Assembly: GCF_902713425.1 (NCBI RefSeq)
Contig: NC_081212.1
Location: 9,972,261 to 10,036,260, forward strand
Direction of reading: 5' to 3'
Source: Acipenser ruthenus
Lineage: Eukaryota
Length of the DNA stretch: 64,000 nt
Shown: piece after piece, positions 2,373 through 63,850 of the stretch
Layout of the letters: each line of letters starts with the position of its first letter
Position numbering within the stretch: the first letter of the stretch is position 1
Notes under the pieces: generated by a model
What the model saw: the letters and a program-made list of their open reading frames with translations, nothing else
What the model was told of the DNA's origin: nothing
The model's database searches: none
Translations under genes and position numbers: made by a program

Positions 2373-5212
2373 ATCTAAGTCTGAGAGTGTGAACTGTGTG
2401 ATTGTGTGGTTGTAAGTAATGATGTGACACTAAAAACTTTCAACGTGCCACTTAAAACAAATAAACCTGTGTCTTTGTTTCTATTTCATCTCTGACACAG
2501 CAATGAAAACCTGAATATGTTAAGAACAGACAGATCAGTCCCATGGAAAGGGATGTACCGGTGATCACGTTTCTATGTTTTGGTTCATTTCCCAAATAAT
2601 GACATTTGATGCTTCTGACCAGACTGTTAATCTGCTTTGTATGGTATACTTTTTAATAAATCTCAAACCACAAATCGATGAGTGCACAATCTCACAAGAG
2701 CTGCACAAGCATGTTGGTCGGGAGAGATCAGCGCCTCTACGTTTTAGCTTCTAACAGCTGAGCCCTCTGTATACCCATTTCCAAAAGCTCTGTGTTAAAA
2801 TGGCTTTTCACATTGTATTCCTTAACTACTGACACACATTCATTGCACAGTAAACACATTGGCTTTGCGCTTGGTACAGTTGGTAAAAAATATAAGTATT
2901 TACTGGTCCACTCATTGTTAAATCTACGATTTCCACCGATGTTTTCTCTTCTTACTAGCTAGAGTAGAGAGCCATGTTTATATCACTTAAAACAAACAAA
3001 CAAAAATGTAATAGCAAAACGAGTAAAAAATAAAAAACCACCCACAGAGTACACCAAGCGAAGCTCAGTGGAACTGGCTTGCACGAGTCGTGCAGAGTGG
3101 CTAGGGATGAAAAGGGGCGGTGTGATGAGAGCGCTGCTTTGCCAGACTCAAAAATAAAACACATCTTAAATCACAAATTGATTTATGATGTTACTATTTT
3201 GTTTTCGTTTTTTTTGTTTTTCATATTTATTTTAGTTAATTTTTATCATTTGTGTTGACGGTCGGCAGGCCGCCAGTTGAAGAGCCCTGCTGTACACTCT
3301 CCAATCATTTTTCCATCTTTCTAATTGCTTCCCACCCACCTCGTCTTTGTATTCCCTGAGTGCAATAAGTTGTGTTAGATATGGATAGATTAATTTGCTG
3401 CACGAGGTAACGGTTGCGGGGACCAGCATGTATTTACATTTACTGGATCTGAGGACAACCCAAGCCCCAGTACATTATTTGTCAGGAGGTTTTGTCAAAC
3501 AAAACTCTTAAACCTGTAAAATTAAAATGCCATTTATCTACAAAGCATTCAGAATGTGAAAAAATAAACACTTTTAAACAAAACAAAACAAAACAAAACA
3601 AAACAAAACAATGTGCAAAATGACAAAATTCCTTACTAAGATTCAAGCCCAGGAATCTCATGAAGTTAGGTATGTTATATAAATACTTTACTTTCTATGT
3701 GTACTTATACACACACATGCAAATTAGATTAAAAATGTTGTTGTGAAAAAATAGAGATGGCAAGCGGTCTGTGGCAAAAGTCCAAACACCAAGGTGGTCC
3801 CTGCCTTGAAAAAGGCTGGGACCAGTGTTCTAGGACATTCCTTTAGCCCTGGAATTAGTCTGGTTCATAGGACTCTCTCCAGGGCCACAGTGACCTTTTG
3901 GTGCTGTGGTGACCACAACTGGATCCGGTACTCTATAAGTGTAATCTCACCAGTGCAGTATTAATTGTTCAATGTCCACTTAGAGTTGAGACCACTTGGA
4001 ACCCGGGTTTCAGTCCAGGCCTCATAGCCCCTGTGCCTCTGCAGTTTGCTGCGGTAATGTCCCCCGCTCAGCAGTAACACAAGACAGTGCTTCCAGGAAC
4101 TCCTTGCACCGTCTTCTTGGAAAGTCTCCCCTAACAGTTCCACAATCTATTTCTGTAACATGCTGTACATGACAAGGAATTAAATACATGTCATCAATAC
4201 ACATAGATATCTGTCTCTCAGTACATTCACACATCAAGGATAGGGTTAGCATTGAATATTGCAGCACTTGACATTCTCCAGTCTTGTTTCTGGTACTTGA
4301 TTTTCTTATAGTCTTACCAGTGCATTATACAGTAAAACCTCATCATAACCTCTTTGGATTTGTACTCTGGCTGTCCAAGTCTGCTCAAGCATTTGCCTTT
4401 TTGATTGCTTCCACGCACAGTCGGGTTGCTGCAGCGACGAGTCTAACACAACATTGAGGGCTTTCTCTTGTGGGCCTGTTCTAGTTCTATACCGCCCATT
4501 TATGCGGAGCCTACATTTCTGTGACCAGGGTGTCACCATAATCTAATCTGAATTGTACTCTTTCGACAATGTAATAAAGGTGAGCAGATACTCATGTTCG
4601 TGAGTAATTAAGTTAGTTATTCATTCATTAAATAAAATGAGTCACTCAACACAAAATAAACCATTCCCTCGTTTGCCCTTGGCTACAGAACTATTGACGA
4701 CCGATCAATAACAATCTGAAAGTGAGATTTAATTTAGAACCTGTCATGATCAAACAAACTAAAACTACTCATTCTATAAGTGTCTTCCCTTTCTTTTATA
4801 CTTTTGTTATACAATCATTTTGATTTCACAATGTTAGAAATGCATCCTCTCTGCAGTGAACTGGGGGACTGTTATCCTGGGTGAGATGTAATCTCAGATT
4901 AAACTCCAGGGAAACACATCCCCAGTCTGCACAGCAGTAGAAATGTAATCTCATATTAAACTCAAGGGAAACACATTTTACAGTCCTGTGTGTTAAAAAT
5001 ATGTACAGACATTGTTCATAAGACTATGGGGTCTCCCAGTGTACCCTGAGAGTAAAAATATCAAATAAACATTCTGTAAATCAATGTCCTTAATAAAAGA
5101 CTTACATTATAAATTATATTATTATATCTTTTAACAAACCAAAATTTCAAAACGGTCAAGAAACTCAATACTTTGTATGGTGCTAGAACCCTGACAAGCA
5201 GAAAAAACAGAA

Positions 5213-5445
5213 CAGTTCAATTGGGATAAAGGAGCATTGACTTTTCTACAACACCAGGACACATTAAGTACGGTTCAATTGGGATAAAGGAGCATTGACT
5301 TTTCTACAACACCAGGACACATTAAGTACGGTTCAATTGGGATAAAGGAGCATTGACTTTTCTACAACACCAGGACACATTAAGTACGGTTCAATTGGGA
5401 TAAAGGAGCATCGACTTTTCTACCGCAGGACCAGGACCCATTGAG
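5213..5445. repeat. 58-bp minisatellite, about 4 copies
   Basis: GGTTCAATTGGGATAAAGGAGCATTGACTTTTCTACAACACCAGGACACATTAAGTAC is repeated in tandem. Confidence 0.9.
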
Positions 5446-6777
5446 TCTTTTTTTTTTTGCTGGTATTTTACACTCACAGTAAAGTCAGAATTTCAATCAT
5501 ACCGCACTGTGTGCACCTGAGTTTTGTGTGGATTCTGCTGCGTATCTCAAGATCTTCAAGAAGGGCCAGTCTTTCATGGTGAGCATGAAGAATGGCTACA
5601 TGTCTTGCATCATGGTGTTGCAGTATTTAGACATATTTACATTCACTTCGCACATGTGACTGCAGTGTTTCGTTATATGCATGAACATTATTTTTATATG
5701 TTATACTTCCTGCAATCTAGATATCTAGATATCTTAACATCTGGAGCTGTGATTTGGAACGTGGCTTCATTAACTTTATAGCTGCTGTGAAAAATAAAGA
5801 TTTGCATGAACTTTTAAACACAGGACTACACCTCACACTTCCTAATCTCTGGAAGTAATTCAGTGCACCCTTTTTTAAATGTGCGTATGCACTTATTATT
5901 TTGCTGTCGGTTTTCTTAATCTCTGCATATATGTTTCAAACCTGACACACAAAGAAAAGATGCACTTACAAATATTAAATGATCTGGATTAAATTACTAA
6001 ACACAGGCATGAAATATGGTCTTTATATTACTAAGAAAGCAGTTTTCATTTTAATATTTGAGATCAGCACTAAAGTGTATGAAGCCAGGGAGTAGTGGCA
6101 CTGGAGCTGTCCTCAAAGCATTGTGAACAGCTGACCCTTCACTGCATTGTACATGTCATTAAAACATGCACACACTAACTAGGGCTGGAACAATAAATTG
6201 ATAATATAATTTTTTTGCAGTGATAATTTTATCACGTTGAGAAAATATTACCGGTAATCATAATTGCCGTCTGTGACCCAGTGAAGCAGGAAACGTCACT
6301 GAACTGTCTGTGCAAGGTGTAAAACATGATCTGTGTGAGGACTGCGTACATTGGGAAGTACTGATTTTAAACAATATGCTTTTAACTTTGCGTCATGGTT
6401 TCATTTTGATAAGAAGTTGTACACTGGCAAAGCATGGCTGGTTTTCTAACATGAACACAAATATGTTTGTTTGTAAAATAAATAAACGCTAGCGCACTGT
6501 AAAATTACTGTAGAAAATCTGTTCCCATGGCGTTGCTATTGTAAAAAAAAAAGGTATAAATGAAAGATAGTTGGCTTTTAATGGAAGGAGAGGTGGTTTA
6601 TTTTATTAAACTGTCTGCATTCAAGCAGCCATGTGCAACTCAGTATGTTCCTAATATATATATTTTTTGTTAAACCTAGTTTAATTCTCTTAATGGCAAA
6701 TGCTTCCAGGTAACGTTAGCAATTTTGTTTCGTTATATTTAATACATTTGGTGGCAAATTAACAAATGTTTAAATAA

Positions 6778-6778
<1 letters not shown>

Positions 6779-6868
<90 letters not shown>

Positions 6869-6915
6869 TACATACATACACACACATATATACATACACA
6901 CACATATATACAATA
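6779..6915. repeat. (AT)n microsatellite followed by (CA)/(TACA) repeats
   Basis: Direct reading. The ORF 6759-7070 is a translation artefact of this repeat. Confidence 0.95.
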
Positions 6916-7217
6916 GGTGCATTTTTATACTCACGTTTGTTCTGGGCACCTACCAGAAATTTAAAAATTCTGCGCATACACTGTCTAGTTTTTTTTCTTC
7001 TAAACTCAATGACTATTAGACTGACAGTTATAATGCTGCTCAAGTATAAATTTGATAAGCATACAAGCACTTTATTTATTCAGATGATAATCACGATTAT
7101 TGTGATAATTTATAGATGAAAATGTCATTATCGTCCAACCCTAATACTAACTTACATTTACTAGTACTTGAAGTATTAAAATAATGTAGTCAAGCGGGCA
7201 CAGTTAAACCAGTCACT

Positions 7218-7220
<3 letters not shown>

Positions 7221-7281
<61 letters not shown>
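7221..7281. repeat. (AAT)n microsatellite
   Basis: Direct reading. Confidence 0.95.
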
Positions 7282-7785
7282 ATTTCCCATTGCTTTGTAT
7301 ATAACCTTTTCTTCATAAGAATCCAAAAGTTATAATCCAACGTGTGTCCAAAAGCAAACAGTAGCCTCTTTTCTAAACCTTATTCCCAGTGTAAAATACA
7401 AATTCCCTCACTGTAGCCTAACCAGAAAATACAGCTTTTTTTTGTCAATGTATATTATCAATCAATTTTTATTTTTAAATAGCGCCTTTCACAATAGATC
7501 GCCGCAAAGCGCTTTACAAGGATACAAACAATAAATATTACAAAAACTAACAATAAATATTACAAAAACTAACAATAAGCAGTAAAAACAAAACAATATA
7601 ACAGTAAAACAAGCAAGTAAGGGTAAGAACATTAAGATATATAAACTAGATTATAAAAATGTGTTTTTAATCTAGTTTTCAAAGCAGCGACAGTGGGAGC
7701 TTCCATATGAAATCAAATCACCAAAAACCTCAACCTCCTTTGATTTGTATACAAATGTCCATGCATGTTTGCCTTTGGGACAAGT

Positions 7786-8275
7786 GGTTACAGTGTACAT
7801 TTTAGGCCTGAGTGACACCCCGTTCATGAGATACAGCTCATCAAAGTTGACTCATTTTGGACCACCCACCCAACCTTTCCGTGGTCATAACTTCCTCCAT
7901 AATTGACACAGAAAGGTAGTTTTGGTGTTGTTTTAAAGCTCTCTAATAGCACTATCTTCTCATTTCTCAGGTTCTGTGAAGTGTACAATAAAAAAAGTTG
8001 TGTGACCTTTGATCTCACCCAGGTCAAATCGCATAACCGTGGATTTTTGTCAGTTTTTGATATATTTTAGCCTAGACCCTTATCTACATTTCCTGCAAGT
8101 TTCATTTTGTGCCTGCCATTGGTTGATACACAGCACAGAGTTGAATGCAGAGTGTCTGGTGAATCTTCTAAGTGAAGCGATTACACACCTATACAATTAA
8201 ACAAATATATTTAGTTATAATCGAGTATACTCACCTGTTAAATTGAAGCTGCAGTGAACTGGTGCAGCTGTAACA
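7786..8275 (+). repeat. Left arm of long inverted repeat (about 490 bp) bounding a 7.8-kb composite element
   Basis: Roughly 90% reverse-complement match to 15091-15592. The ORF pair 8009-8200(+) and 15174-15365(-) encodes almost the same peptide, which shows the inverted copy. Confidence 0.8.
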
Positions 8276-8280
8276 GATTC

Positions 8281-10110
8281 ATAAGAAAGTTTATAAACGA
8301 GAGGAGGCCATTCAGCCCATCTTGCTCATTTGGTTGTTAGTAGCTTATTGATCCCAGAATCTCATCAAGCAGCTTCTTGAAGGATGTCAGCTTTGTTTTA
8401 CAACATTATTGGGGGGTTGGTTCCAGACCCCTGGTCCTTGTTTCTTTTTTCAGGTCAAAAAAGTACCTTGGGTCCACATTGTCAATACCTTTTAGAATTT
8501 TGAATGCTTGAATCAGATCACCGCATAGTCTTTGTTCAAGACTAAATAGATTCAATTCTTTTAGCTTGTCTGCATATGACATGCCTTTTAAACCTGGGAT
8601 AATTCTGGTCGCTCTCTATGCACTCTTTCTAGAGCAGCAATATCCTTTTTGTAGCAAGGTAACCAGAACTGAACACAATATTCTAAATTAGGTCTTACTA
8701 ATGCATTGTAAAGTTTTAACATTATTTCCCTTGATTTAAATTCAGCACTTCTCAGTATATATCCAAGCATCTTGTTGGCCTTTTTTTATAGCTTCCCCAC
8801 ATTGTCTAGATGAATACATTTCTGAGTCAACATAAACTCCTAGTCTTTTTCATAGTTTCCTTCTTCAATTTCAGTATCTCCCATATGATATTTATAATGC
8901 ACATTTTTATTGCCTGTGTGCAGTACCTTACACTTTTCTCTATTGAATGTAATTTGCCATGTGTCTGCTTTTTGGAATTGGTTTTAGCCCCCTTGGCAAT
9001 GTTCATTTCTATCTCTCTCTTGGCCTTTCTAACTTGACTTGCGTTTGCAGTTCCAAGTACTCTGTGTACTTTGTTCTTGGTCCCTTTTAAACGCTCTGTA
9101 AAGTGCCTTTTTTCTCTGGATATTTTTTTAAATTGATCTATTAAACCATTTTGGCCATTTTGTTCTAGATTTAGATTTGTCTACTTTTGGGATGTAATTG
9201 TTTTGCGCCTCTAGTACTAAATTTTTTTTAAAAAAGCCATTCTTTCCCTGTGGGTGTTTTTTCTACTTTACTCCAATCTACTTCTGTTAGTCTCTGTTTC
9301 ATACCTTCATAGTTTGCCTTTTTAAAATTGTAAACCTTAACTTTAGTCATTACTTTTGGGGTTTTAAAAAGCACTTCAAATGACACAATGTTGTGGTCTG
9401 AGTTTGCAAATTCTTTCTCTGTTTTAGTTATTCTGTCTTCGTTCTTTGAAAAGACTAAACCAAGGCATGCCTCCCCTCTAGTCGGTGCAATGACAAATTG
9501 CGTCAGGAAGGAGTCATTTATCATTTCTACCCTTTCAATTTTGTCCGTCGTGCCCCCCATCGGGTTTTCCCATTTTATATGGGCGAAGTTGAAATCCCCC
9601 ATTAGTATGGCTTCTCCTTTTCTACACGCATTTCGAATGTCATTGTATAACAGATAATTTTGCTCGGTGCCTGAATTTGGCGGTCTATAGCATGCCCCTA
9701 TTATTATGCCCTTTGAATTGTTGTCCATTATTCTGACCCATATTGATTCGGCGTTGTTTTCTTCGTCCAGATTTAACACCTGTGCTTCAAGACTATTTCT
9801 TATGTATAGCGCTACCCCTCCGCCTCTTCTGTCCTGTCTGTCTTTCCTATACAGTGTGTACCCACTAATATTATATTCGTCTCCATCATAAACCAAGTTT
9901 CTGTAACACCTATCACATCGCAGTTACTTGTTAGTACAACATTTTGTTTCTGGGACTTCTAGCATTTAGATAAATACATTTACTGGCTATCTTACCTGAA
10001 TTGTTGCCCTTGTTTTGATGTGGTCTCCCTTCTGTTTTTTTGTTGATTACTCCCCAAATCCAATTTGGCCTATTAACACATGTGACTAAAGTGTAGCACA
10101 GGTGAATTAA
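8281..10110 (-). mobile_element. CR1-like LINE copy (internally deleted): 3' tail, RT C-terminal fragment and apurinic endonuclease domain
   Basis: 3' tail GAGGAGGCCATTCAGCCCATCTTGCTC...TTATTGATCCCAGAATCTCATCAAGCAGCTTCTTGAAGG starts at 8281. RT C-terminal motif ...[19 protein letters not shown] is at 8588-8770(-). Endonuclease ORF at 9228-9896(-) reads ...YNISGYTLYRKDRQDRRGGGVALYIRNS.... The 5' region is collinear with 29740-30170. Confidence 0.8.
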
Positions 10111-12382
10111 ATACAGATGAATAGTGAAATGTGTCCTTTATATAGTCCTTCCAGGATTCCGCGATCGCAGAAAAAAAATCACAGAATTTGTTCTCTCTCG
10201 CAGAATTTTCCCTGTACATGTCACTAGAGCGCATGCATGCTATTTGTATAGTGAGGAATGTGGCGAGCTTTAGTTCAGCCATGGAGACATTCCTAAGGCC
10301 ATCGGTGAGCTCCAGAAACAAATCTAAATTAGCACCGAATATAATGGCAAAAGATAGGGCACAAATGCAAAATGCAAGTCCAGTATTTCCAATAACTCAC
10401 CATAGCTCCTGTTAAAACAGCAGAAGACCGTGACAACGACCATGGAAAGACAAACAGTGGCTACTAAAGAACGAAATAAGGTAAGATTATTATTATTACT
10501 ATTATTTTACAAAAGGATTTCATAGTTTAGTCGCAAGTTCAAAGTGAAGCAATGTTCTCTTACTCCTATGTGAAAGGTCAGAGAAAAACCATTGCTTGTA
10601 CCTTGCTTGTACTCCCTATGCTGCAGGTCCTGAAAGATGTCATTCTAATTATATATGGAAATACACACGTATTTTGTACATGGTGTAGTAACATAAATGC
10701 TCAAAAAGCAAGGGGGCAGCGCACTATATTAGATATTATCCGATTACTTGGGATGACAACATTCTTGTGAAAATCCTCTTTTTTTAAAATCGTTACTTTC
10801 CTGTTTGTTTTGTGGTATGTGATGTAGCACTTTAACATTGTGGTCAAAGAAACATAAAAGCTAGTTTATCAGCCAATCAGTGTCGCCTGTCACTGTTTCC
10901 AAGCGCTTGTTGCAGTTTCCAAACTATTTCTATATGCTGTCTTGATGTAGATACGTTTTAGAATTATAACATTTTGGTGAACAACACATGTTTCTAAAAA
11001 TACCCTGTTACATCTGTACAAAAAGCCTCATATTTGGCTTTGCCAGCAATATTAAGGTCATTTACTTTAAGGCCCTGTCCATACTACATAACCAATCTCG
11101 AGAACTGTACTCAAAAACGTTTTAATTAAACCTGCTCAAACTTTAGCGTCCACACTGAAGTACCGTTTCATGTTTAGTCGGGCGTAATCCGTCCACACAC
11201 AGTCACCTAATTCAAGTCACCTAATTTAACGTTGTGCTTTTGTTATTTTCCTCACTAGTTTAACATCCTGACAGATTTTGTTAAACATAGAAATGAATAC
11301 CTAGTGCGGAGTGTACACTGATAGCAAGTCAATTGTCAATCTGAAGTTTTTTTGCTAAGCAGTCAGCATCTTCAGGGGATTCTCATGAAGAAGATCACCC
11401 CTCTGCATCTCAGCCATCTACTTCTGACTGTACGAGTACTACAGTGACCGAAGCAGTAGTAATGCACAAAAACGCAAACAAAAAATACCTTCTTTGAATG
11501 GGAGATGAAGTATCCATGGACTGTTTATTGAGACGGCAAGATGTACTGTGTGTGAAAAAGCTGCTGGGCAAAAAAAAAAAAAAAAAAAAAAAGCATATAC
11601 ACACAAATGTACAGATTTTCAAGAATCTTCGCTTAAGACACAGACACGGTGATGCTGTTGCTGTTATTGGAAAGCAGAAAAATATGAAAACACATGTAGA
11701 TGAAGGCAACAAACAGTGCTTAGAATCCCGTCTCGCTGTCATGCAAACGGCCTACTGTTAGTATGTAACAAAGAAAAAAAGAGTGTCTGTGTTCATATGT
11801 AGATCTGTACACAGACAGAGATTGTTTAAACTATGATATAGCACAGAGTTTAAACATTTATAAAAATGTACCAAAATGCACATCCCTGCAGTTTATTCAC
11901 CTTTGTGTTAAAATGTTGTATTTGATGGATGGGATGCAGATTTTTGGGCATGTGCGATTCAGGAACGCATGAACAGAAATGCAAGCGCGACCTCTGTTAA
12001 ATACTGGCAGTTGACTCTAATTTACAATAACGAGCCAACTGCCAAAACAATTAACACATAATCTATCAATTACACATTTTTGTATGGCAGGGTGATTTTA
12101 ACCCCTCCCCTGCCACAGTGTATTTTTTAAAAATAGCATCCAATAGTCAGTGCTGTAAGAGTTTTTGAAAAAGTGAACTCTCTTTGCTTTATTGTATGTG
12201 TGTGTTTTCTTCTTCTTTGATTTACAGAAAATATGGCAAACATGTTTGTTCTGGTTTTTTATATATATTTTAAACATGTATATATTACACTTACAAGTTG
12301 AACATTCTTGACATTAAATTTTGTAGCTAAAATTCTTGCAGTTTTGCAGTCTATTTCACATTGAAGACAATTTGTTGCATAA

Positions 12383-14650
12383 ATGGCAAGTACTTCCAAT
12401 GTCTTTCTTGGCATTAAATACATCAAAGCTTGCTGTGAACCATTTGCAAAGCATTGTGGAGAGCGCCACACTAAAGGTCGCACCTTAACAAAGAAGCAGA
12501 TCAAGGACCACCAGAAGCTGAACGTTGTGTATGGCCAGAAGTTCTGTTACCCTTGTATGAAGTTGCTAGCCCATCATCCTCCTGACCAAGACCAAACATC
12601 ACCTTCAACACAAAGTGACCACAAGGTGTCTAGTTCAGAGAATCCAGCCCTCATGCTGTTCAAGACAAACAACCTGAAAGCAATGACATTTTCAAAGCTG
12701 AAAAGGAACATGAGATTTCACAAATAAACAAGGCCTTGGAGGCAATGCAAGAATCTCCACTGAAGAGAAGGAAACTGTCATAAAAGGTAAATGCAGTTCA
12801 GAAAGTAAAGAAGGTCGGAGAAGCAATGAAGAGAAAGCTAAGAAAGGTTTTCCCACAAACAGAAATGGAAGACCGTGAAACAATCAAGGAGCAGGCTCAG
12901 GCATCGATGATGGCCCAGTTGAAGGAAAAATGTAATTCAAATATCAGACGAAGTCAGTAAGTTCATATTTTGACAGCTGCCTCAATGTCTTGGTCTATAC
13001 GGAGGACTGCTGCTGAGTTTGGTGCTACCTCCCACATGTCCAGGACAGCCGAGGCTTTACAGGAAGAGAAGAGATGCCTATCGGATTCAAATCCAAACAT
13101 TGGGGGGAGAACACTCACAGAGGAGCTTGCTCAAATGGTAAAATTGTTCTACAACAGGGAAGATGTTAGTCGACTCATGGCTGGAGAGAACTATTTTGTT
13201 TCTGTTTACAATAAAGAGTCGGGAAGGAGGAAGCACCAACACAAACGGCTTGTTCTATGCTATCTTTCAGAGGCCTGTCGTTTCTTCAGATTACAGCATC
13301 CTGACATTAAGATCGGCTTCTCCAAATCTGCAGAGCTGAAACCAAAGGAGAGTGTATTGGCAGGCAGTAGCGGTACACATTTTGTGTGTGTCTGCACAGC
13401 ACACCAGAATGTAAAGCTGATGTTCATTTGTTCTTCCACAAGTGAGTGCCAGTACAGAAGTGCCTTTGATTCACTATCAACATTTCTTACCTTATCTCAG
13501 GAGTTCCCCACCTAACGTCGATTGCCACTTAGGAAAGTATGAAAATTGTCCATTATTCACGAGTCATCTACAAATGCTCTTTCAAGATAGCCTGGTGGAC
13601 TCAGTAGAGTATCGGAAGTGGGCTACAACTGACAGATCCACCCTTCAGACAATCAATGAACCTGTTGATCAGTTCATAGAGACTTTCAAAAGCCATCTGC
13701 AACGTCTTCGTCGACATGATCTCATAGTAAAGATGCAGATTGCATATTATCAACAGCTGAGGGATGAACTCCTTCAAGAAAATGAATTCCTCGTTGTTGG
13801 TGATTTTGCAGAAAACTTGACTTTCGTCATGCAAGATGAAGCACAATCACACCATTGGCACAACTCTAAGGCAACCATACATTATTTTGTTTGCTATTGG
13901 CAAGACAAAGATGAGAATTCTCAGCACATCTCATATGTTGCAGTATCAGAATGCAAGACTCATGACACAGCCTTTGTTTATCTTTTTCAAAAGCATATTT
14001 TGAGGTTCTTGGAGAACTAATTTAGGCGCTCAAGAAAAATCTATTAATTCTCTGACGGGTGTGCAGGACAATATAAAAACTGTAAAAATGTCCTCAACAT
14101 TTGGCAGCACTTGGAAGATTTTGGCGTGGAAGCAGAGTGGAACTTCTTTGCAACACCTCATGGCAAAGCACCCAGTGATGGTGTAGGAGGAACCATTAAA
14201 CGAATGGCAACAAAAGCCAGTTTGCAGCGTCCATACCATGACCAGATCCAGACTCCACACCAATTGTATAGGTTTGAAAAAGACAACATTCCTGCTCTTG
14301 AAGTAGAATACTTCACGATAGCACAATGGCAAACGGAGCAAGATTTTCTGAAGCAAAGATTCCTCAAGGTAAGAACCATGCCTGGCACACGGCATCTCTA
14401 CTTGCATGAGAGTTCTCCCAGTCAACAAAGCAAAGAGAAAAATCAATCACAGTCAAAGAGGTTGTCCTACCATTTGACCAAGTGAAAGAATATGTTACTG
14501 TTCAGTATGACAGTCACTGGTGGCTCGGGCTGGTGGTGTCTGCTGATCAGAAGAAACAGGAGGCTGAAATTAACTTCCTGCACCCGAATGGACCAGCACA
14601 ATCTTTCTGTTTCTCACATCGTCCAGATCAATTTATTGTAGACACAGGGA
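12383..14650 (+). pseudogene. Frameshifted transposase-like ORF of an unclassified DNA-transposon family (N-terminal Cys-rich region, CxC motif, DFAEN / SDGCAGQYKN / HGKAPSDGVGG motifs, C-terminal YDSHWWLG...FLHPNGP domain)
   Basis: Four successive + strand ORFs in shifting frames (12383-12727, 12970-13515, 13442-14020, 14111-14485) are collinear and read as one roughly 700-aa protein. Candidate splice signals are a donor at about 14368 (AAG|GTAAGAACC) and an acceptor at about 14877. The ORF lies inside the inverted-repeat-bounded element. Confidence 0.55.
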
Positions 14651-15090
14651 TGTGCTGACATCAGTGGAGCCAACAATTGTAACAGGAAGGACATACACCC
14701 TGAGAGACAAGGAGATGCCAAAGCATCAAAAGCCTTGACAGAGTGGCAACGAAGGAAAAGGGCAACTTAAGCATAGGTGAGTGGTAAACTGTGTTGCTTG
14801 CAGAATTATAAGGACAGAGACCTGAAAATGAAATATCTACATTTCCACCACTTCTAACAATACATTTTCTTTTCCAGGCTCAGTGATTCATTGGATTTGA
14901 ATAGTGGTAATTACAGCTCCTGGAGAAGCATCACTTAAAATACCAAACATGTGCTGACAGATGTACCACTGGTGGGGACAAAATTAAACGTGCACAATTC
15001 AGAATTGATTTATATTTAATTCACCTTTATTTGTTTGTTTCAGCCAATTGTGTAAATAGGGAACCTTGGTTAATTTGTTAATATATTAAT

Positions 15091-15592
15091 AGCTGTTACA
15101 GAAGCACCAGTTCACTGCAGCTTCAATTTAACAGGAGAGGAGAGTATACTCGATTGCAAATAAATATATTTGTTTAATTGTATAGGTGTGTAATCGCTTC
15201 ACTTAGAAGATTCACCTGACACTCTGCATTCAACTCTGTGCTGTGTATCAACCAATGGCAGGCACAAAATGAAACTTGCAGGAAATGTAGATAAGGGTCT
15301 AGGCTACAATCTATCAAAAACTGACAAAAAACCACAGTTACACGATTTGACCTGGGTGAGGTCAAAGGTCACACAACTTTTTTTTTTTTATCTTGTATTT
15401 CACATCAATTGAATGGATAGTCCTATTTGGGAGCTTTAAAACGACACCAACATCAGCTTTCTATGTCAATTCTGGAGGAAGTCATGACCATGTAAAGGTA
15501 GGGTGGGTGGTCCAAATCAGGTCAAGCTTTGATGACCTGTATCTCATGAATGGGAGGTCACTCAGGATTACAATTCACAGTGTAACCATGTG
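15091..15592 (-). repeat. Right arm of long inverted repeat (partner of 7786-8275)
   Basis: Reverse complement aligns to 7786-8275 with a few indels. Confidence 0.8.
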
Positions 15593-15599
15593 CAAAAGT

Positions 15600-15900
15600 T
15601 TACCACAATCAGAGGAGGTCAAGTGAAAAACGGCATATGGAATGACCCTTTCTTTACAGTGCTAGGCAGGTCATTCCATAATTTAGGGGCTTTATTGTTG
15701 TGTTTTTTTCTGAGTTTTGGGAATATGAAGTAACTCTGCATCCTGTGAACGGAGTGAGTGTCTAGGAACATATGGGGTTAAAAGATAATTTAATAAGATG
15801 GGGCAAGGCCATTTAAAGCCTTGTAGGCCTTCAAATCTAAACTGGACAGGAAGCCAGTGCAAAGATGCTAACACAGGGGTAACGTGTTCTTGTCTCTTAG
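15600..15900 (-). mobile_element. L2-clade LINE C-terminal fragment (minus strand)
   Basis: ORF 15692-15874(-) reads LHWLPVQFRFE...LLTPYVPRHSLRSQDAELLHIPKTQ. Its continuation in another frame reads APKLWNDLPSTV. Both are L2 ORF2 C-terminal motifs. The fragment abuts the right inverted-repeat arm. Confidence 0.6.
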
Positions 15901-16540
15901 GTTAAAAGGTCAAAAGAAGCATTTTTGTACAAGCTGCAGACAAGAAATAACATGACTATACCAGAGAAAAGGGCATTACAGTAATCAGTCCTTGAAGATA
16001 CAAAAGCATGCATCAGTTTCTCAGCATCTGGTCAGGAAAGAATACTTTTCAATTTGGCGATATTTCTTAGATGAAAGAAAGAGATTTTGGTAACATTTCT
16101 AATGTGCGGTTCAAAAAATGATCTGGGTCAAAGATCACTCCTAAGTAGGTCTGTCAAACGATTAAAAAAAATGTATCTTAGTTAACCTTGGTTTTAATCG
16201 CATATTTAATTGATACAATTACAGCATCCATCTCAAACATGGCAAACCAGGGTAAACTGGTCCTCCTATTTGTATGATACATAATAAAGATCAAATGGTT
16301 GATCTTTCTGTTAAAAGACAAACCTTAAATGAGACAGGGAGACTACGTAATGATACCGACTATAAAATCCACTTACTCTTCATTCAAGAACCACTTGGTG
16401 AACTCCAGTGAAGTATGTTGTGTGGTCTTGTACCACGACACAAATGATACATACCGCTATTCCGATACGATGTATCATGTACCTAAAGTATTCATCAATA
16501 CACAATGAATCATTACACCCCTATTCAAAACATAACTTAC

Positions 16541-21038: not shown

Positions 21039-21215
21039 CATAAGAAAGGTTACAAACAAGAGGAGGCAATTTGGCCCATCTTGCTCGTTTGGTTGTTAGT
21101 ACCTTATTGATCCCAGAATCTCATCTCAAGTAGCTTCTTGAAGGATCCCAGGGGGTCAGCTTCAACAACATTACTGGGGAATTGGTTCCAGACTCCCACA
21201 ATTCTCCGAAGCAGC
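21039..21215 (-). mobile_element. CR1-like LINE 3' tail fragment
   Basis: GAGGAGGCAATTTGGCCCATCTTGCTCGTTTGGTTGTTAGTACCTTATTGATCCCAGAATCTCATC... matches the other CR1 tails. Confidence 0.7.
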
Positions 21216-26399: not shown

Positions 26400-27120
26400 G
26401 AACAATGCAAGGAAGTTAATTTGGAGAAGCAGAAATGACAGCACCAAATGGGCTACCCTGTGTTTTGACTGAAATGTACACTGTTGCAGCAGCAAAGGTA
26501 ATTCAAAATGATCTGATGACATTTAATATAGAAAAGTGTAAGGTACTGCACGCAGGCAATAGAAATGTGCATTATAAATACCATATGGGAGACACTAAAA
26601 TTCAAGAAGGAATCTATGAAAAATCTAGGAATCTAGGAGTTTATGTTGACTCAGAAATGTCTTCATCTAGACAATATGGGGAAGCTATAAAAAAAGGCTA
26701 ACAAAATGCTCTGACATATTGGGAAAACTGTTGAATTTAAATCAAGGGAAGTAATGTTAAAACTTTACAATGCATTAGTAAGACCTCATCTAGAATATTG
26801 TGTTCAGTTGTGGTCACCTCGTTACAAAAAGGATATTGCTGCCCGAGAAAGAGTGCAAAGAAGAATGACCAGAATTATCCCTGGTTTAAAATGCATGTCA
26901 TATGCAGACAGGTTAAAACAATTGAATATTTTCAGTCTTGGACAAAGAAGACTACGCGGCGATCTGATTCAAGCATTCAGAATTCTAAAAGGTATTGACA
27001 ATGTCGACCCAGGGGATTTTTTCAACCTGAAAAAAGAAACAAGAACTCCCCATAATCTCCACCTCCCAACCCCACGTGTAATAATGTTAAGAATTCTTAC
27101 CTTACATATAATTAACCAAA
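26400..27120 (+). mobile_element. CR1-like LINE RT C-terminal fragment (plus orientation)
   Basis: ORFs 26435-26701 and 26754-27164 read ...KCKVLHAGNRN...[45 protein letters not shown]...[16 protein letters not shown]. This is the CR1 RT thumb/C-terminal region, found also in chicken CR1. Confidence 0.8.
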
Positions 27121-27139
27121 CAAATTCTACAATAACAAA

Positions 27140-30100
27140 ATATCTTTGCTTGTTTGGTTGTTAGGAGCTTATTGATCCCAGAATCTCATCAAGCAGCTTC
27201 TTGAAGGTTCCCAGGGTGTCAGCTTCAACAACATTACTGGGGAGTTGGTTCCAGACTCCCACAATTCTCTGTGTAAAAAAGTGCCTCCTATTTTCTGTTC
27301 TGAATACCCCTTTGTCTAATCTCCATTTGTGACCCCTGTTCCTTGTTTCTTTTTTCAGGTTGAAAAAGTCCCCTGGGTCAACATTGTCTATACTTTTTAG
27401 AATTTTGAATGTTTGAATCAGATCGCCGCGTAGTCTTCTTTGTTCAATACTGAATAGATTAAATTCTTTTAGCCTGTTATGACATGCCTTTTAAACCAGG
27501 AATAATTCTGGTCACTCTTCTTTGCAGTCTTTCTAAACAGCAATATACTTTTTGTAGTGAGGTGACCAGAACTGAACACAATATTCTAGATGAGGTCTTA
27601 CTAATGCATTGTAAAGTTTTAACATTACTTCCCTTGATTTAAATTCACTTTTCACTATATATCCCAGCATTTTGTTGGTCTTTTTTATAGCTTACCCACA
27701 TTGTCTAGATGAAGACATTTCTGAGTCAACATAAACTCCTAGGTCTTTTTAATAGATTCCTTCTTCAATTTCAGTATCTCCCATATTGTATTTATAATGC
27801 ACATTTTTATTGCCTGCATGCAGTACCTTAAACTTTTCTCTATTAAATGTAATTTGCCGTGTGTCTTCCCAGTTCTGAATGCTGTCTAGATCATTTTGGA
27901 TGAACTTTGCTGCTTTTTTGTGTCATCTGCAAATTTTACAAGTTTGCTTACTATACCAGAATCCAAGTCATAAATGTAGATTAGGAATAGCAGAGGGCCT
28001 AATACTGATCCCTGTGGTACACCACTGGTTACCTCGCTCCATTTTGAGGTTTCTCCGCTAATCAGTACCTTCTGTTTTCTGCATGTTAACCACTCCATAA
28101 TCCATGTGCATACATTTCCTTGAATCCCTATTGCGTTCAGTTTGATAATTAATCTTTTATGCAGGACTTTGTCAAAAGTTTTCTGGAAATCTAAATAAAC
28201 CATGTCATATGCTTTGCAATTATCCATTGTTGATGTTGCATCCTCAAAAAAATCAAGCAGTTTAGTTAGACACGATCTCCCTTTCCTAAAACCATGCTGA
28301 CTGTCTCCCAGGATACTGTTACCATATAGGTAATTTTCCATTTTGGATCTTATTATAGTTTCCATAGGTTTACATATAATAGATGTCAGGCTTATTGGTC
28401 TGTAGTTACCTGGTTCGGTTTTGTCTCCCTTTTTGTGGATCGGTATTACGTTTGCAATTCTCCAGTCTGTCGGTACAACCCCTGTCTCAAGAGACTGATG
28501 CATGATCTTGGTTAGTGGTTTGGAAATAACTTCTTTCATTTCTTTGAGCAATATTGGGAGGATCTCATCTGACCCAGGGGATTTGTTTATTTTAAGAGCT
28601 CCTAGTCCCTTTAACATTTCTGCCTTGGTTATGCTAAAGTTATTTAAAACAGGATAGGAACAGTTAGACATGTGGGGCATGTTGTCCGTATCCTCCTTTG
28701 TAAAAACTTGTGAAAAGTACTCATTTAATATATTTGCTATTTTTTTCTCTTGGTCTATGATTTTGCAATGTATATCTCTTAGCCATTTAACCTCCACTTT
28801 GAATGTTCTCTTGCTATTATAATATTGGAAAAACTTTGTGGAATTGGTTTTATGCCCCCTAGCAATGTTCATTTCTATCGCTCTCTTGGCCTTTATAACT
28901 TCCTTTTTGATTTGCATTTGCAGTTCCAAGTACTCTTTCTGTGTACTTTTTTCTTGGTCCCTTTTAAACGCACTGTAAAGCGCCTTTTTTCGCTGAATAT
29001 TGTTTTAATTGATCTATTAAACCATTTTGGCCATTTTGTTTTAGATTTAGATTGGTCTACTTTTGGGATGTAATTGTTAAAAAACAGCCATCCTTTTTCT
29101 GTGGATGTTTTCTCTATTTACTCCAACTTCTATTAGTCTGTTTCATACCTTTATAGTTTGCCTTGTTATTTTTGGGGTTTTAAAAATCACTTAAAATGAG
29201 ACCATGTTGTGGTCTGAGTTTGCCAATGGTTCTCTGACCTCTGTTTTAGTTATTCTGTCTTTGTTATTAGAAAAGACTAAATCAAGGCATGCCTCCCCTC
29301 TAGTCGGTACCTTGACAAATTGCGTTAGGAAGCAGTCATTTGTCATTTCCACCATTTCAATTTCATCTGTCATGCTCCCCACCGGGTTTTCCTATTTTAT
29401 ATGGGGGAAGTTGAAATCCCCCATTAGTATGGCTTCTCCTTTGCTACACGTATTTCTAATGTCATTGTATAACAGATTATTTTGCTTGGTGTCTGAATTT
29501 GGTGGTCTGTATGTAGCATGCTCCTATTATTATGCCCTTTGAATTTTTGTCCATTATTCTGACCCATATTGATTCAGCGTTGTTTTCTTCGTCCAGATTT
29601 AACACTTGGGCTTCAAGACTATATCTTATGTATAGCACTACCCCTCCGCCTCTTCTGTCCTGCCTGTCTTTCCTATATAGTGTATACCCACTAATATTAT
29701 ATTCGTCTTCATTACTCTCAGATAACCAAGTTTCTGTAACACCTATCACATCGTAGTTACTTGTTAGTACAGTAGCTTCAAGTTCTAACATTTTGTTTCT
29801 AATACTTCTAGCATTTAGATAAATACATGTAATGGCTGTCTTACTATTATTATTATTATTATTATTATTTATTTCTTAGCAGACGCCCTTATCCAGGGCG
29901 ACTTACAATTGTTACAAGATATCACATTATTTTTACATACAATTACCCATTTATACAGTTGGGTTTTTACTGGAGCAATCTAGGTAAAGTACCTTGCTCA
30001 AGGGTACAGCAGCAGTGTCCCCACTGGGGATTGAACCCACAACCCTCCGGTCAAGAGTCCAGAGCCCTAACCACTACTCCACACTGCTGCCCCTGAGTTG

Positions 30101-30170
30101 TTGCCCTTGTTTTGATGTGGTCTCCCTTCTGTTTTTTTGTTAATTTCACCCCCCTTCATTTATAGTTTAA
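27140..30170 (-). mobile_element. CR1-like LINE, near-complete ORF2 (endonuclease plus reverse transcriptase) and 3' tail; contains a nested SINE
   Basis: 3' tail at 27140-27300. RT ORF 27886-28929(-) carries FADDTK/YLDFQKTFDKV motifs. Endonuclease fragments lie at 29191-29382 and 29477-29791(-). The 5' region is collinear with 9900-10110 except for a SINE inserted at 29846-30091. Confidence 0.85.
29846..30091 (-). mobile_element. tRNA-derived SINE (family B) nested in the CR1 5' region
   Basis: Full tRNA-like head with A box TGGAGTAGTGGTTAGGGC and B box GGTTCAATCCCCAGTGGGG. Tail GTAAGTCGCCCTGGATAAGGGCGTCTGCTAAGAAATAAAT(AAT)n. The empty-site homolog is at 9985-10000. Confidence 0.85.
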
Positions 30171-49320: not shown

Positions 49321-50215
49321 ACATAAGAAAGTTTCCAAACGAGAGGCCATTCAGCCCATCTTGCTCGTTTGGTTGTTAATCGCTTATTGATCCCAGAATC
49401 TCATCAAGCAGCTTCTTGAAGGATCAGGTTGAAAAAGTCCCCTGGGTTGACATTGTCAAAACCTTTTAGGATTTTGAATGTTTGAATCAGATCACCGCGT
49501 AGTCTTCTTTGCTCAAGACTGAACAGATTCAATTCTTTTAGCCTGTCTGCATATGACATGCCTTTTAAACCAGGGATAATTCTGGTCACTCTTCTTTGCA
49601 CTCTTTCTAGAGCAGCAATATCCTTTTTGTAGTGAGATGACTAGAACGGAACACAATATTCTACATGTGGTCTTACTAATGCATTGTAAAGTTTTAACAT
49701 TACTTCCCTTGATTTAAATTCAACACTTTTCACTATATTTACTAGCATTTTGTTGGCCTTTTTTATAGCTCTAGATGAAGACATTTCTGAGTCAACATAA
49801 ACTCCTAGATCTTTTTCATAGATTCCTTCTTCAATTTCAGTTTCTCCCATATGGTATTTATAATGCACATTTTATTGCCTGCATGCAGTACCTTACACTT
49901 TTCTCTATTAAATGTAATTTGCCATGTGTCTGCCCAGTTCTGAATGCTGTCTAGATCATTTTGAATGACCTTTGCTGCTGCAATGGTGTTTGCCACTCCT
50001 CCTATTTTTGTGTCGTTTGCAAACTTAACAAGTTTGCTTACTATACCAAAATCTAAATCATTAATGTAGATTAAGAAGAGCAGAGGACCTAATACTGATC
50101 CCTATTGTACTCCACTGGTTACCTCGCTCCATTTTGATGTTTCTCCTCGAATCAGTACTTTCTGTTTTCTACATATTAACCACTCCTTAATCCATGTGCA
50201 TGCATTTCCTTGAAT
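49321..50215 (-). mobile_element. CR1-like LINE 3' portion (RT C-terminus plus tail), minus orientation
   Basis: Tail at 49321-49400. Minus ORFs read ...[28 protein letters not shown] and ...[18 protein letters not shown]. Confidence 0.8.
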
Positions 50216-50464
50216 CCTTGCATTTCCTTGAATTAGTAGGCTTATCAAACCTAGTAGATTCAGCTATAGGTCCGTCAGCTCTGGCAGATTGTACTGTATT
50301 TGCTGAAGCACTTCTGGGTTCCCACGGCTAATTTAAAATCCAGTTTAATCCCTCTTGTTTAATTTAATTAGTCCCGTACTGTATGTCGCCTCACCAAGAG
50401 GTGCAGTCTGCTGGTCTTGTTCTGCCTGGACACTGCCATCACCCGTATGGACTGACAAATGTTT

Positions 50465-50830
50465 TAAACCGTCGTAATTGAATCTGCTCAGTCTTGAACA
50501 AAGAAGACTATGCGGCAATCTTATTCAAGCTTTCAAAATTCTAAAAGGCATTGACAATGTCGACCCAAGGTACTTTTTTGACCTGAAAGAAACGAGGACC
50601 AGGGTCACAAATGGACATTAGGTAGGGGCATTCAGAACAGAAAAATGGGAGGCACTTTTTTACACAGAGAATTGTTGGAGTCTGGAACCAACTCCCCAGT
50701 AATGTTGTTGTAGCTGACACCCTGGGGTCCTTCAAGAAGCTGCTTGATGAGATTCTGGGATCAATAAGCTACTAACAACCAAACGAGAAAGATGGTCCGA
50801 ATGGCCTCCTCTTGTTGTAACCTTTATGTT
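50465..50830 (+). mobile_element. CR1-like LINE 3' end (plus orientation), inverted relative to the 49321-50215 copy
   Basis: ...EQRRLCGNLIQAFKILKGIDNVDP..., then a 3' UTR ending ...AACCAAACGAGAAAGATGGTCCGAATGGCCTCCTCTTGTTGTAACCTTTATGTTCTTATGTTC. Confidence 0.8.
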
Positions 50831-63444: not shown

Positions 63445-63699
63445 GTAAGGTTATTTGAAGACGGCTCATACAGGTCAATAATAAGCCTTCTGATACTCAT
63501 TATCATGATAACCCAAAGCGCAGTGAAGCTAAAAGGCAAAAAAATTATATTGTACCATTGCTATTGGACATCTCAATAGTCACCAAGTGTCACTGCTTTT
63601 AAAACAAGATTAAAAACACACTTTTATAATGTAGTGTTTGTATGCTAAAATGATGTTCCTTTTATTCTCTGCCCTGTTTTACTGTTCTATGTGTTTCTT

Positions 63700-63850
63700 T
63701 AGTTTTTATTGCTTTTCTTGTATTCTTTTATTAATATTTGTCTTTTATTAATTATTAATGTTTTATTCATGTGAAGCGCTTTGCGGCAATTTTTATTGTG
63801 AAAGGCGCTTTATTAAAAATAAAGATTATTATTATTATTATTATTATTAT
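63700..63850 (+). mobile_element. LINE/SINE 3' tail-type repeat (GTGAAGCGCTTTGCGGCAATTTTTATTGTGAAAGGCGCTTTATTAAAAATAAA) plus (ATT)n
   Basis: Reverse complement matches 7465-7520. Shares a stem-forming GCGCTTT...AAAGGCGC motif with the tails at 18960 and 41885. Confidence 0.4.

Follow-up and report, generated by a model that had tools for sequence, protein, structure and literature searches.

Sequence evidence for an old, inactivated Sola2 DNA transposon with long terminal inverted repeats in Acipenser ruthenus

Analysing a 64,000-nucleotide stretch of the Acipenser ruthenus genome (NCBI RefSeq assembly GCF_902713425.1, contig NC_081212.1, positions 9,972,261 to 10,036,260 of the forward strand; hereafter the window, numbered from its first letter), we conclude with a probability of about 0.93 that positions 7695-15648 are one old and inactivated DNA transposon of autonomous type, belonging to group 2 of the Sola superfamily (Sola2). 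An earlier reading of the sequence (hereafter the original prediction) had described positions 7786-15592 as a composite element bounded by long inverted repeats and carrying a transposase-like gene, possibly a large and decayed DNA transposon. This general picture was borne out, the gene being a Sola2 pseudogene with nine relatives that display the same layout of long terminal inverted repeats (TIRs) around a transposase gene. The Sola superfamily was reportedly named by Bao, Jurka, Kapitonov and Jurka in 2009, and Sola2 elements are said to combine a DDD (three-aspartate) transposase with target-site duplications (TSDs) of 4 bp.

The long frameshifted open reading frame (ORF) first noticed between the arms corresponds to a broken reading frame at 12383-14640, with a length of ~750 aa, 3 frameshifts and 4 in-frame stops. 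Searching with P0001, its closest intact relative, tblastn recovered it in three high-scoring segment pairs (12703-13428, 13433-14401 and 14413-14640), the N-terminal frame beginning at 12383. The three reading frames were stitched into a 753-aa conceptual protein, which was used as the homology query and is 45% identical to P0001 over 708 aligned positions. The assignment to Sola2 relies on the RNase-H-like cores of Repbase Sola1-1_AP, Sola2-1_HM and Sola3-1_HM printed in supplement file 5 of Majorek et al. 2014 (PMC3985635). The core of the window ORF is 46% identical to that of Sola2-1_HM (59/129 aligned positions, E=7e-41) and P0001 reaches 52% against the same core (E=1e-45). By contrast, the Sola1 core gave only a weak local match to the window at the second aspartate (E=8e-4), and the Sola3 core gave no match to it.

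Several landmarks of such a transposase remain readable along the pseudogene: an N-terminal Cys/His cluster (12431-12568), a CxCxxH motif (13378-13410), three candidate catalytic aspartates, D1 in GDFAEN (13802-13804), D2 in FSDGCAGQYKN (14054-14056) and D3 in HGKAPSDGVGG (14177-14179), and a C-terminal beta-rich domain carrying YVTVQYDSHWWLG / FLHPNGP (14491-14595), the C-terminus of the transposase forming a chromo/Tudor/PWWP-like barrel. Alignment of 42 sequences singles out D409 (DFAEN), D494 (SDG) and D535 (HGKG.CDG) as the acidic positions that hardly vary, and all three are still encoded in the window. The protein has the DDD triad in an RNase-H-like fold that characterizes Sola2, the three aspartates being predicted to act in catalysis.

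Homology searches returned 75 full-length metazoan homologues at 31-45% identity, mostly of 650-860 aa and covering most of the query, from hosts including hagfish, rotifers, insects and a sea cucumber. A profile search against 1.84 billion cluster representatives retrieved 29,010 of them at E<=1e-3, of which 5,066 reach E<=1e-30, revealing how large this family is. No Pfam domain was detected in the ORF fragments, in four intact homologues that were scanned as well, or in any of the 75 homologues, and the family profile had no relative among PDB sequences. Literature searches on the name "Cc8L18.2" (the only source-given name), on the peptide motifs and on the terminal motifs provided nothing useful.

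The lack of any Pfam match, together with the retroviral integrases as closest solved folds, as Ginger would predict, could point to some other superfamily that leaves 4-bp TSDs and can have long TIRs (piggyBac, Kolobok, Ginger1), or to one that has yet to be described. We consider this highly improbable, given the direct 46% identity to the Sola2-1_HM core, the TSDs of the relatives, which are not TTAA, and the absence of rve, piggyBac or THAP domains from the scans. Taken individually, piggyBac and Kolobok were rejected on the relatives' lack of a TTAA TSD and on the lack of Pfam matches to piggyBac or THAP domains; Ginger1 was rejected since no PF00665 match appeared even at E<=5, the integrase likeness being at fold level only. 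The description of the element as poorly characterised is fair in that there is no Pfam model and no solved relative detectable by sequence, but the superfamily has a name and its presence in fish is catalogued.

For nine intact relatives (L001-L009, Table 1), the neighbouring genomic sequence was retrieved and compared with the window. In 9/9 of them, a single ORF of ~650-850 aa lies between long TIRs of 430-1,320 bp, for a native element length of 3.7-5.5 kb; inverted repeats that had been regarded as unusually long are therefore normal for this Sola2 lineage (0.43-1.3 kb in the nine relatives). Their 18 termini yielded the consensus GGGTCATTCCATgTCAatTCAAC, of which ~22 nt, GGGTCATTCCATGTCAA.TCAAC, are conserved, and the TIR interiors are not alignable between hosts. 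The window termini fit this 18-terminus consensus, as expected from the lineage-specific termini of Sola2 TIRs. Furthermore, 4-bp TSDs were perfect in six of the nine loci (AATA, TCAT, AGAT, TGAA, CTAC and ATCT) and agreed at 3/4 positions in one more, a perfect match of the flanks being expected by chance at 1/256 per locus. The 4-bp TSDs of Sola2 are thus present at the level of the lineage; the unmatched flanks of L002 and L008 could reflect recombination between copies.

Some of these loci also displayed features of their own. One of the two Rotaria magnacalcarata loci (L007) contains foldback-like arms (621-1224 / 1666-2259) of ~600 bp, 89% identical and ~440 bp apart, which are 71% similar to the neighbouring Sola2 TIR; this pair is probably a non-autonomous derivative consisting almost wholly of TIR. 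At L005 (TIRs at 4209-5520 / 8379-9711), the right TIR covers the last ~150 bp of the transposase ORF (gene 6001-8529), so that part of the coding sequence is repeated in inverted orientation at the opposite end. Finally, an extra solo terminus, GGGTCATTCCATGCCAAATCAAC, was found near position 1609 (minus strand) of L002, ~7.6 kb from the main element.

Table 1. Features of the window element (positions in the window) and TIRs and flanks of the nine intact relatives
Feature	Positions	Strand	Evidence or description
Left TIR, outer part	7695-8276	+	Arm alignment; end motif set against the relatives' 18 termini
LINE fragment, secondary insertion in left TIR	8277-10056	-	Pfam Exo_endo_phos; 3' end at 8277; other window copies
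Left TIR, inner continuation	10057-10148	+	Pairs with 15069-14976; blastn, MAFFT
5' spacer, 2.2 kb	10149-12382	+	No Pfam, tRNA, Rfam or repeat match
Sola2 transposase pseudogene, ~750 codons	12383-14640	+	Translations; tblastn with P0001; Sola2-1_HM match
3' spacer, ORF to right TIR	14641-14975	+	No repeat or protein match
Right TIR	14976-15648	-	Weak inner part 14976-15092, main part 15093-15648
Extra terminal-like 12-mer AGGTCATTCCAT	15668-15679	+	One mismatch; may not belong to the element
L001			TIR ~540 bp, 81-91% by segment; flanks AATA / AATA
L002			TIR 435 bp, 94%; flanks ATTA / TAAT
L003			TIR ~560 bp, 95% over 444-nt core; flanks TCAT / TCAT
L004			TIR 543 bp, 98.9%; flanks AGAT / AGAT
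L005			TIR ~1.3 kb, 92.5%; flanks ATGT / ATTT
L006, Bacillus rossius (stick insect)			TIR ~600 bp, 92.6-98.8% by segment; flanks TGAA / TGAA
L007, Rotaria magnacalcarata (rotifer)			TIR ~615 bp, 93.4%; flanks CTAC / CTAC
L008, Rotaria magnacalcarata			TIR ~615 bp, 93.5%; flanks CCCT / TATA
L009, Apostichopus japonicus (sea cucumber)			TIR ~730 bp, 93.0%; flanks ATCT / ATCT

In the window itself, the inverted repeat announced at 7786-8275 / 15091-15592 was recovered both by a repeat search and by blastn. The repeat search produced three gap-free pairs: 7984-8236 against 15138-15390 (253 nt, 94%), 7847-7965 against 15407-15525 (119 nt, 82%) and 7785-7846 against 15527-15588 (62 nt, 84%). These are merged by blastn into a single alignment of 7773-8276 with 15598-15093 (515 columns, E=1e-172), which is 86.0% identical, a little less than the "about 90%" first given. 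A window-wide self-BLAST detected no third copy of the arms in the 64 kb, and a 22-mer identical in both arms had 0 matches in JGI metagenome contigs. The arms reach further out than first reported, and the motif common to the relatives sets the true ends at 7695 and 15648, correcting the outer limits of arms that had otherwise been rightly located. The right terminus is an exact copy of GGGTCATTCCATATG (exact 15-mer) on the minus strand, ending at 15648, and the left terminus, GGGAGCTTCCATATGAAATCAAATCACC from 7695, matches at 12/15 positions and represents a mutated form of the lineage consensus.

The arms also reach further inward. The insertion noted between them, labelled CR1 in the original prediction, is a piece of a long interspersed nuclear element (LINE). 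Its minus-strand ORF (9228-9896) encodes an apurinic/apyrimidinic (AP) endonuclease domain (Pfam Exo_endo_phos, E=3.7e-10). Beyond this block the left arm picks up again, its inner continuation (10057-10148) pairing with 15069-14976 at ~66% identity (blastn E=2.6e-6; MAFFT alignment). As the inverted repeat resumes past the block, the LINE landed in a left TIR originally of ~675 bp, which is the length of the window TIRs in the arm alignment once the LINE is removed, and it is only because of this insertion at 8277-10056 that the left arm seems to stop at 8276. Self-comparison identified the same LINE family elsewhere in the window, at 21039-21196, 26516-30152 and 49322-50825. Some of its copies form inverted pairs, for instance 27046-26516 against 27331-27866. 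The ENA contig protein P0222 is 94% identical to the endonuclease fragment, and the nearest named homologues of the fragment are from reedfish and softshell turtle.

This anatomy bears on the alternative, raised in the original prediction, of two opportunistic insertions: two copies of one dispersed repeat of ~500 bp, either a miniature inverted-repeat transposable element or a short interspersed nuclear element, would have inserted independently in opposite orientation and bracketed an unrelated transposase pseudogene. Such a scenario would fit the lack of a TSD at the outer ends of the window copy, the short GTTACAG / CTGTAAC match at the start and end of the arms, and the different repeat that begins exactly where the left arm seems to end on its inner side (8277-8280). 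However, that edge was created when the LINE inserted, the inverted repeat continuing on the far side, and the nine relatives of the gene all have TIRs of the same size class opening with the same ~22-nt motif. Above all, the terminal motif was located in the arms at their outer ends only, their inner ends being devoid of it. The arms are thus not self-contained elements, and we rejected this scenario as very unlikely. The same observation led us to reject a composite transposon of the insertion sequence (IS) type, in which two copies of a mobile element carry the intervening DNA. The geometry is superficially similar, several kb of cargo being enclosed by long inverted arms, but the arms have neither a transposase ORF nor terminal repeats of their own, the sole transposase lies between them, and relatives of that protein are always found with such arms; the label "composite" is therefore misleading in its IS sense, and this origin appears barely credible.

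A few points do weigh against a single Sola2 element. No TSD was found for the window copy, whose flanks, CAGT and TTTC, have 0/4 matching positions, nor was one present at the coordinates of the original prediction, whereas the same test succeeds in the relatives. At the left terminus, three of the first six bases depart from the consensus. The identity between the arms is uneven, in a way that is not explained by a uniform decay from perfect TIRs. Finally, membership in Sola2 is argued from homology and from relatives in other phyla, rather than from a comparison with a copy of the same genome. Concerning the missing TSD, the loss of the duplication and a small terminal rearrangement are not distinguishable in this copy, which is old and has a mutated left tip. 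As a speculation that we do not put forward as a claim, a 10-bp deletion of TTTCGGGTCA at the left junction would give a TTTC/TTTC TSD.

The flanks offered no further help in recovering the TSD. A dispersed repeat makes up the left flank (7452-7694). Its second copy, at 63585-63838, stops at the same point, but what lies downstream of this copy shows no relation to the right flank (local score 13 against a shuffle mean of 12.2). No empty-site paralogue was found in the window, the second copy of the left-flank repeat offering no empty site. This repeat (7452-7694, and 63585-63838 on the minus strand) is A-rich, with ~74% identity between the copies, and starts with ...AGCGCCTTTCACAAT..GCCGCAAAGCGCTTTACA; its copy at 7452-7694 ends a few bases from the Sola2 left terminus. 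Positions 6766-6913, just upstream of the region, hold a ~150-bp compound microsatellite, (AT)n / (AC/AT)n. On the other side, the 12-mer AGGTCATTCCAT (15668-15679), 19 bp beyond the right terminus, is oriented towards it (ATGGAATGACC-N21-GGTCATTCCAT) and is the sole other copy of the terminal 12-mer with at most one mismatch in the 64 kb, for an expectation of 0.25. A second element starting at this motif was looked for, but the motif has no inverted counterpart within 3.3 kb and is not followed by anything resembling an arm. It may have been left by a sibling copy, as a footprint or a solo end, or may match the flanking repeat by coincidence.

Arm identity rises from ~65% over the outermost ~120 alignment columns to ~84% over columns 121-300 and ~96% in a central core of ~290 bp (7995-8280, 15095-15385), and falls to ~63% in the innermost part. 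Because of this unevenness, arm divergence cannot simply be read as the age of the element. Natively imperfect TIRs with a conserved core are a plausible cause, since the arms of L001 are similarly uneven; gene conversion between the arms is suggested as an alternative. Within the best-conserved core, a palindrome able to form a hairpin, TGACCT-N12-AGGTCA, was observed at 8003-8026 with a right-arm mirror near 15350-15373; its half-sites, inverted relative to each other, resemble those of nuclear receptors.

Scans for tRNAs and Rfam families across 7000-16500 returned nothing, and the ORFs of the 5' spacer (10149-12382) had no Pfam match, the spacer having no other copy in the window. With 2.2 kb, this spacer exceeds the 370-880 bp range of the spacers of the relatives, and may for that reason contain further decayed inserts.

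Considering homology, an active element of this lineage would move by cut-and-paste. It would encode a single DDD transposase of ~750-800 aa, with Cys/His clusters before its RNase-H-like core and a small beta-barrel domain after it, predicted to bind the ~22 nt GGGTCATTCCATGTCAA.TCAAC found on the outer tips of both long TIRs, to excise the element and to reinsert it through a 4-bp staggered cut that would generate the 4-bp TSD. In this scheme, the anatomy, the homology, the fold and the TIR and TSD pattern of the relatives are the observations reported above, to which catalysis, binding of the terminal motif and cut-and-paste are added by inference. Following insertion, the window copy decayed through the arrival of the LINE fragment in its left TIR, the gain of 3 frameshifts and 4 stops in its ORF, and the change of its left tip from GGGTCA to GGGAGC, its TSD becoming unrecognisable. 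This copy is unable to move on its own and, with its mutated left tip, is probably not mobilisable in trans either.

The element is an ordinary decayed Sola2 of a known superfamily and its novelty is low. The small room left for novelty concerns the long TIRs and the GGGTCATTCC terminus, if these are absent from Repbase entries. For annotation, ~8 kb including the nested LINE can be masked as one decayed Sola2 rather than as a gene or a new mobile class. Moreover, Sola2 transposases are abundant and yet have neither a Pfam model nor a solved structure, and the confident model and the D-D-D residues could seed a Pfam model, with the common terminal motif providing a simple handle on the non-autonomous Sola2 derivatives of animal genomes. 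It seems rather unlikely, if conceivable, that the animal lineage represents a distinct clade not yet described, a reading suggested by the conservation of GGGTCATTCCATGTCAA.TCAAC from rotifer to fish, by the TIRs of 0.4-1.3 kb with unalignable interiors and by the C-terminal barrel. If true, termini left nearly unchanged despite a transposase identity of 31-45% would imply an unusually strict recognition of the ends or repeated horizontal transfer across phyla.

Among known systems, Repbase lists Sola1, Sola2 and Sola3 (PMC4455052), and RepeatMasker-type surveys reported Sola elements in medaka, stickleback and zebrafish, with 15,251 copies or 0.24% of the genome in the latter (PMC4746887). 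Retroviral integrases and Tc1/mariner transposases of solved structure have an identity of only 8-14% and different flanking domains, TSD lengths and termini. Sola1 and Sola3 belong to the same superfamily by published definition. Sola1 and the window have in common SDxCxGQ around the second aspartate (E=8e-4), but neither Sola1 nor Sola3 displays significant core similarity to it elsewhere. The feature given for Sola2 is a 4-bp AT-rich TSD (Bao & Jurka 2013, PMC3627910). The amoebozoan Sola2-Fanzor elements (DFa-1/2/3, PPa-1/4/5; PMC3627910) have a Sola2-type transposase and such 4-bp AT-rich TSDs, but are 10-15 kb long, with TIRs of 12-22 bp and a Fanzor1 (TnpB-like) gene, whereas elements of the animal lineage are natively 3.7-5.5 kb long, with TIRs of 0.43-1.3 kb and only one ORF. 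The closest likeness is with Sola2 itself and with Sola2-1_HM of Hydra, through GDFAENY..QDE.QS.HW, SDGCAGQYKN and EWNFFATSHG in the core, three conserved aspartates in an RNase-H-like fold and the 4-bp TSDs of the relatives. Although the window copy is dead, interrupted by a LINE and devoid of a recognisable TSD, nothing fundamental differs between it and the Sola2 group.

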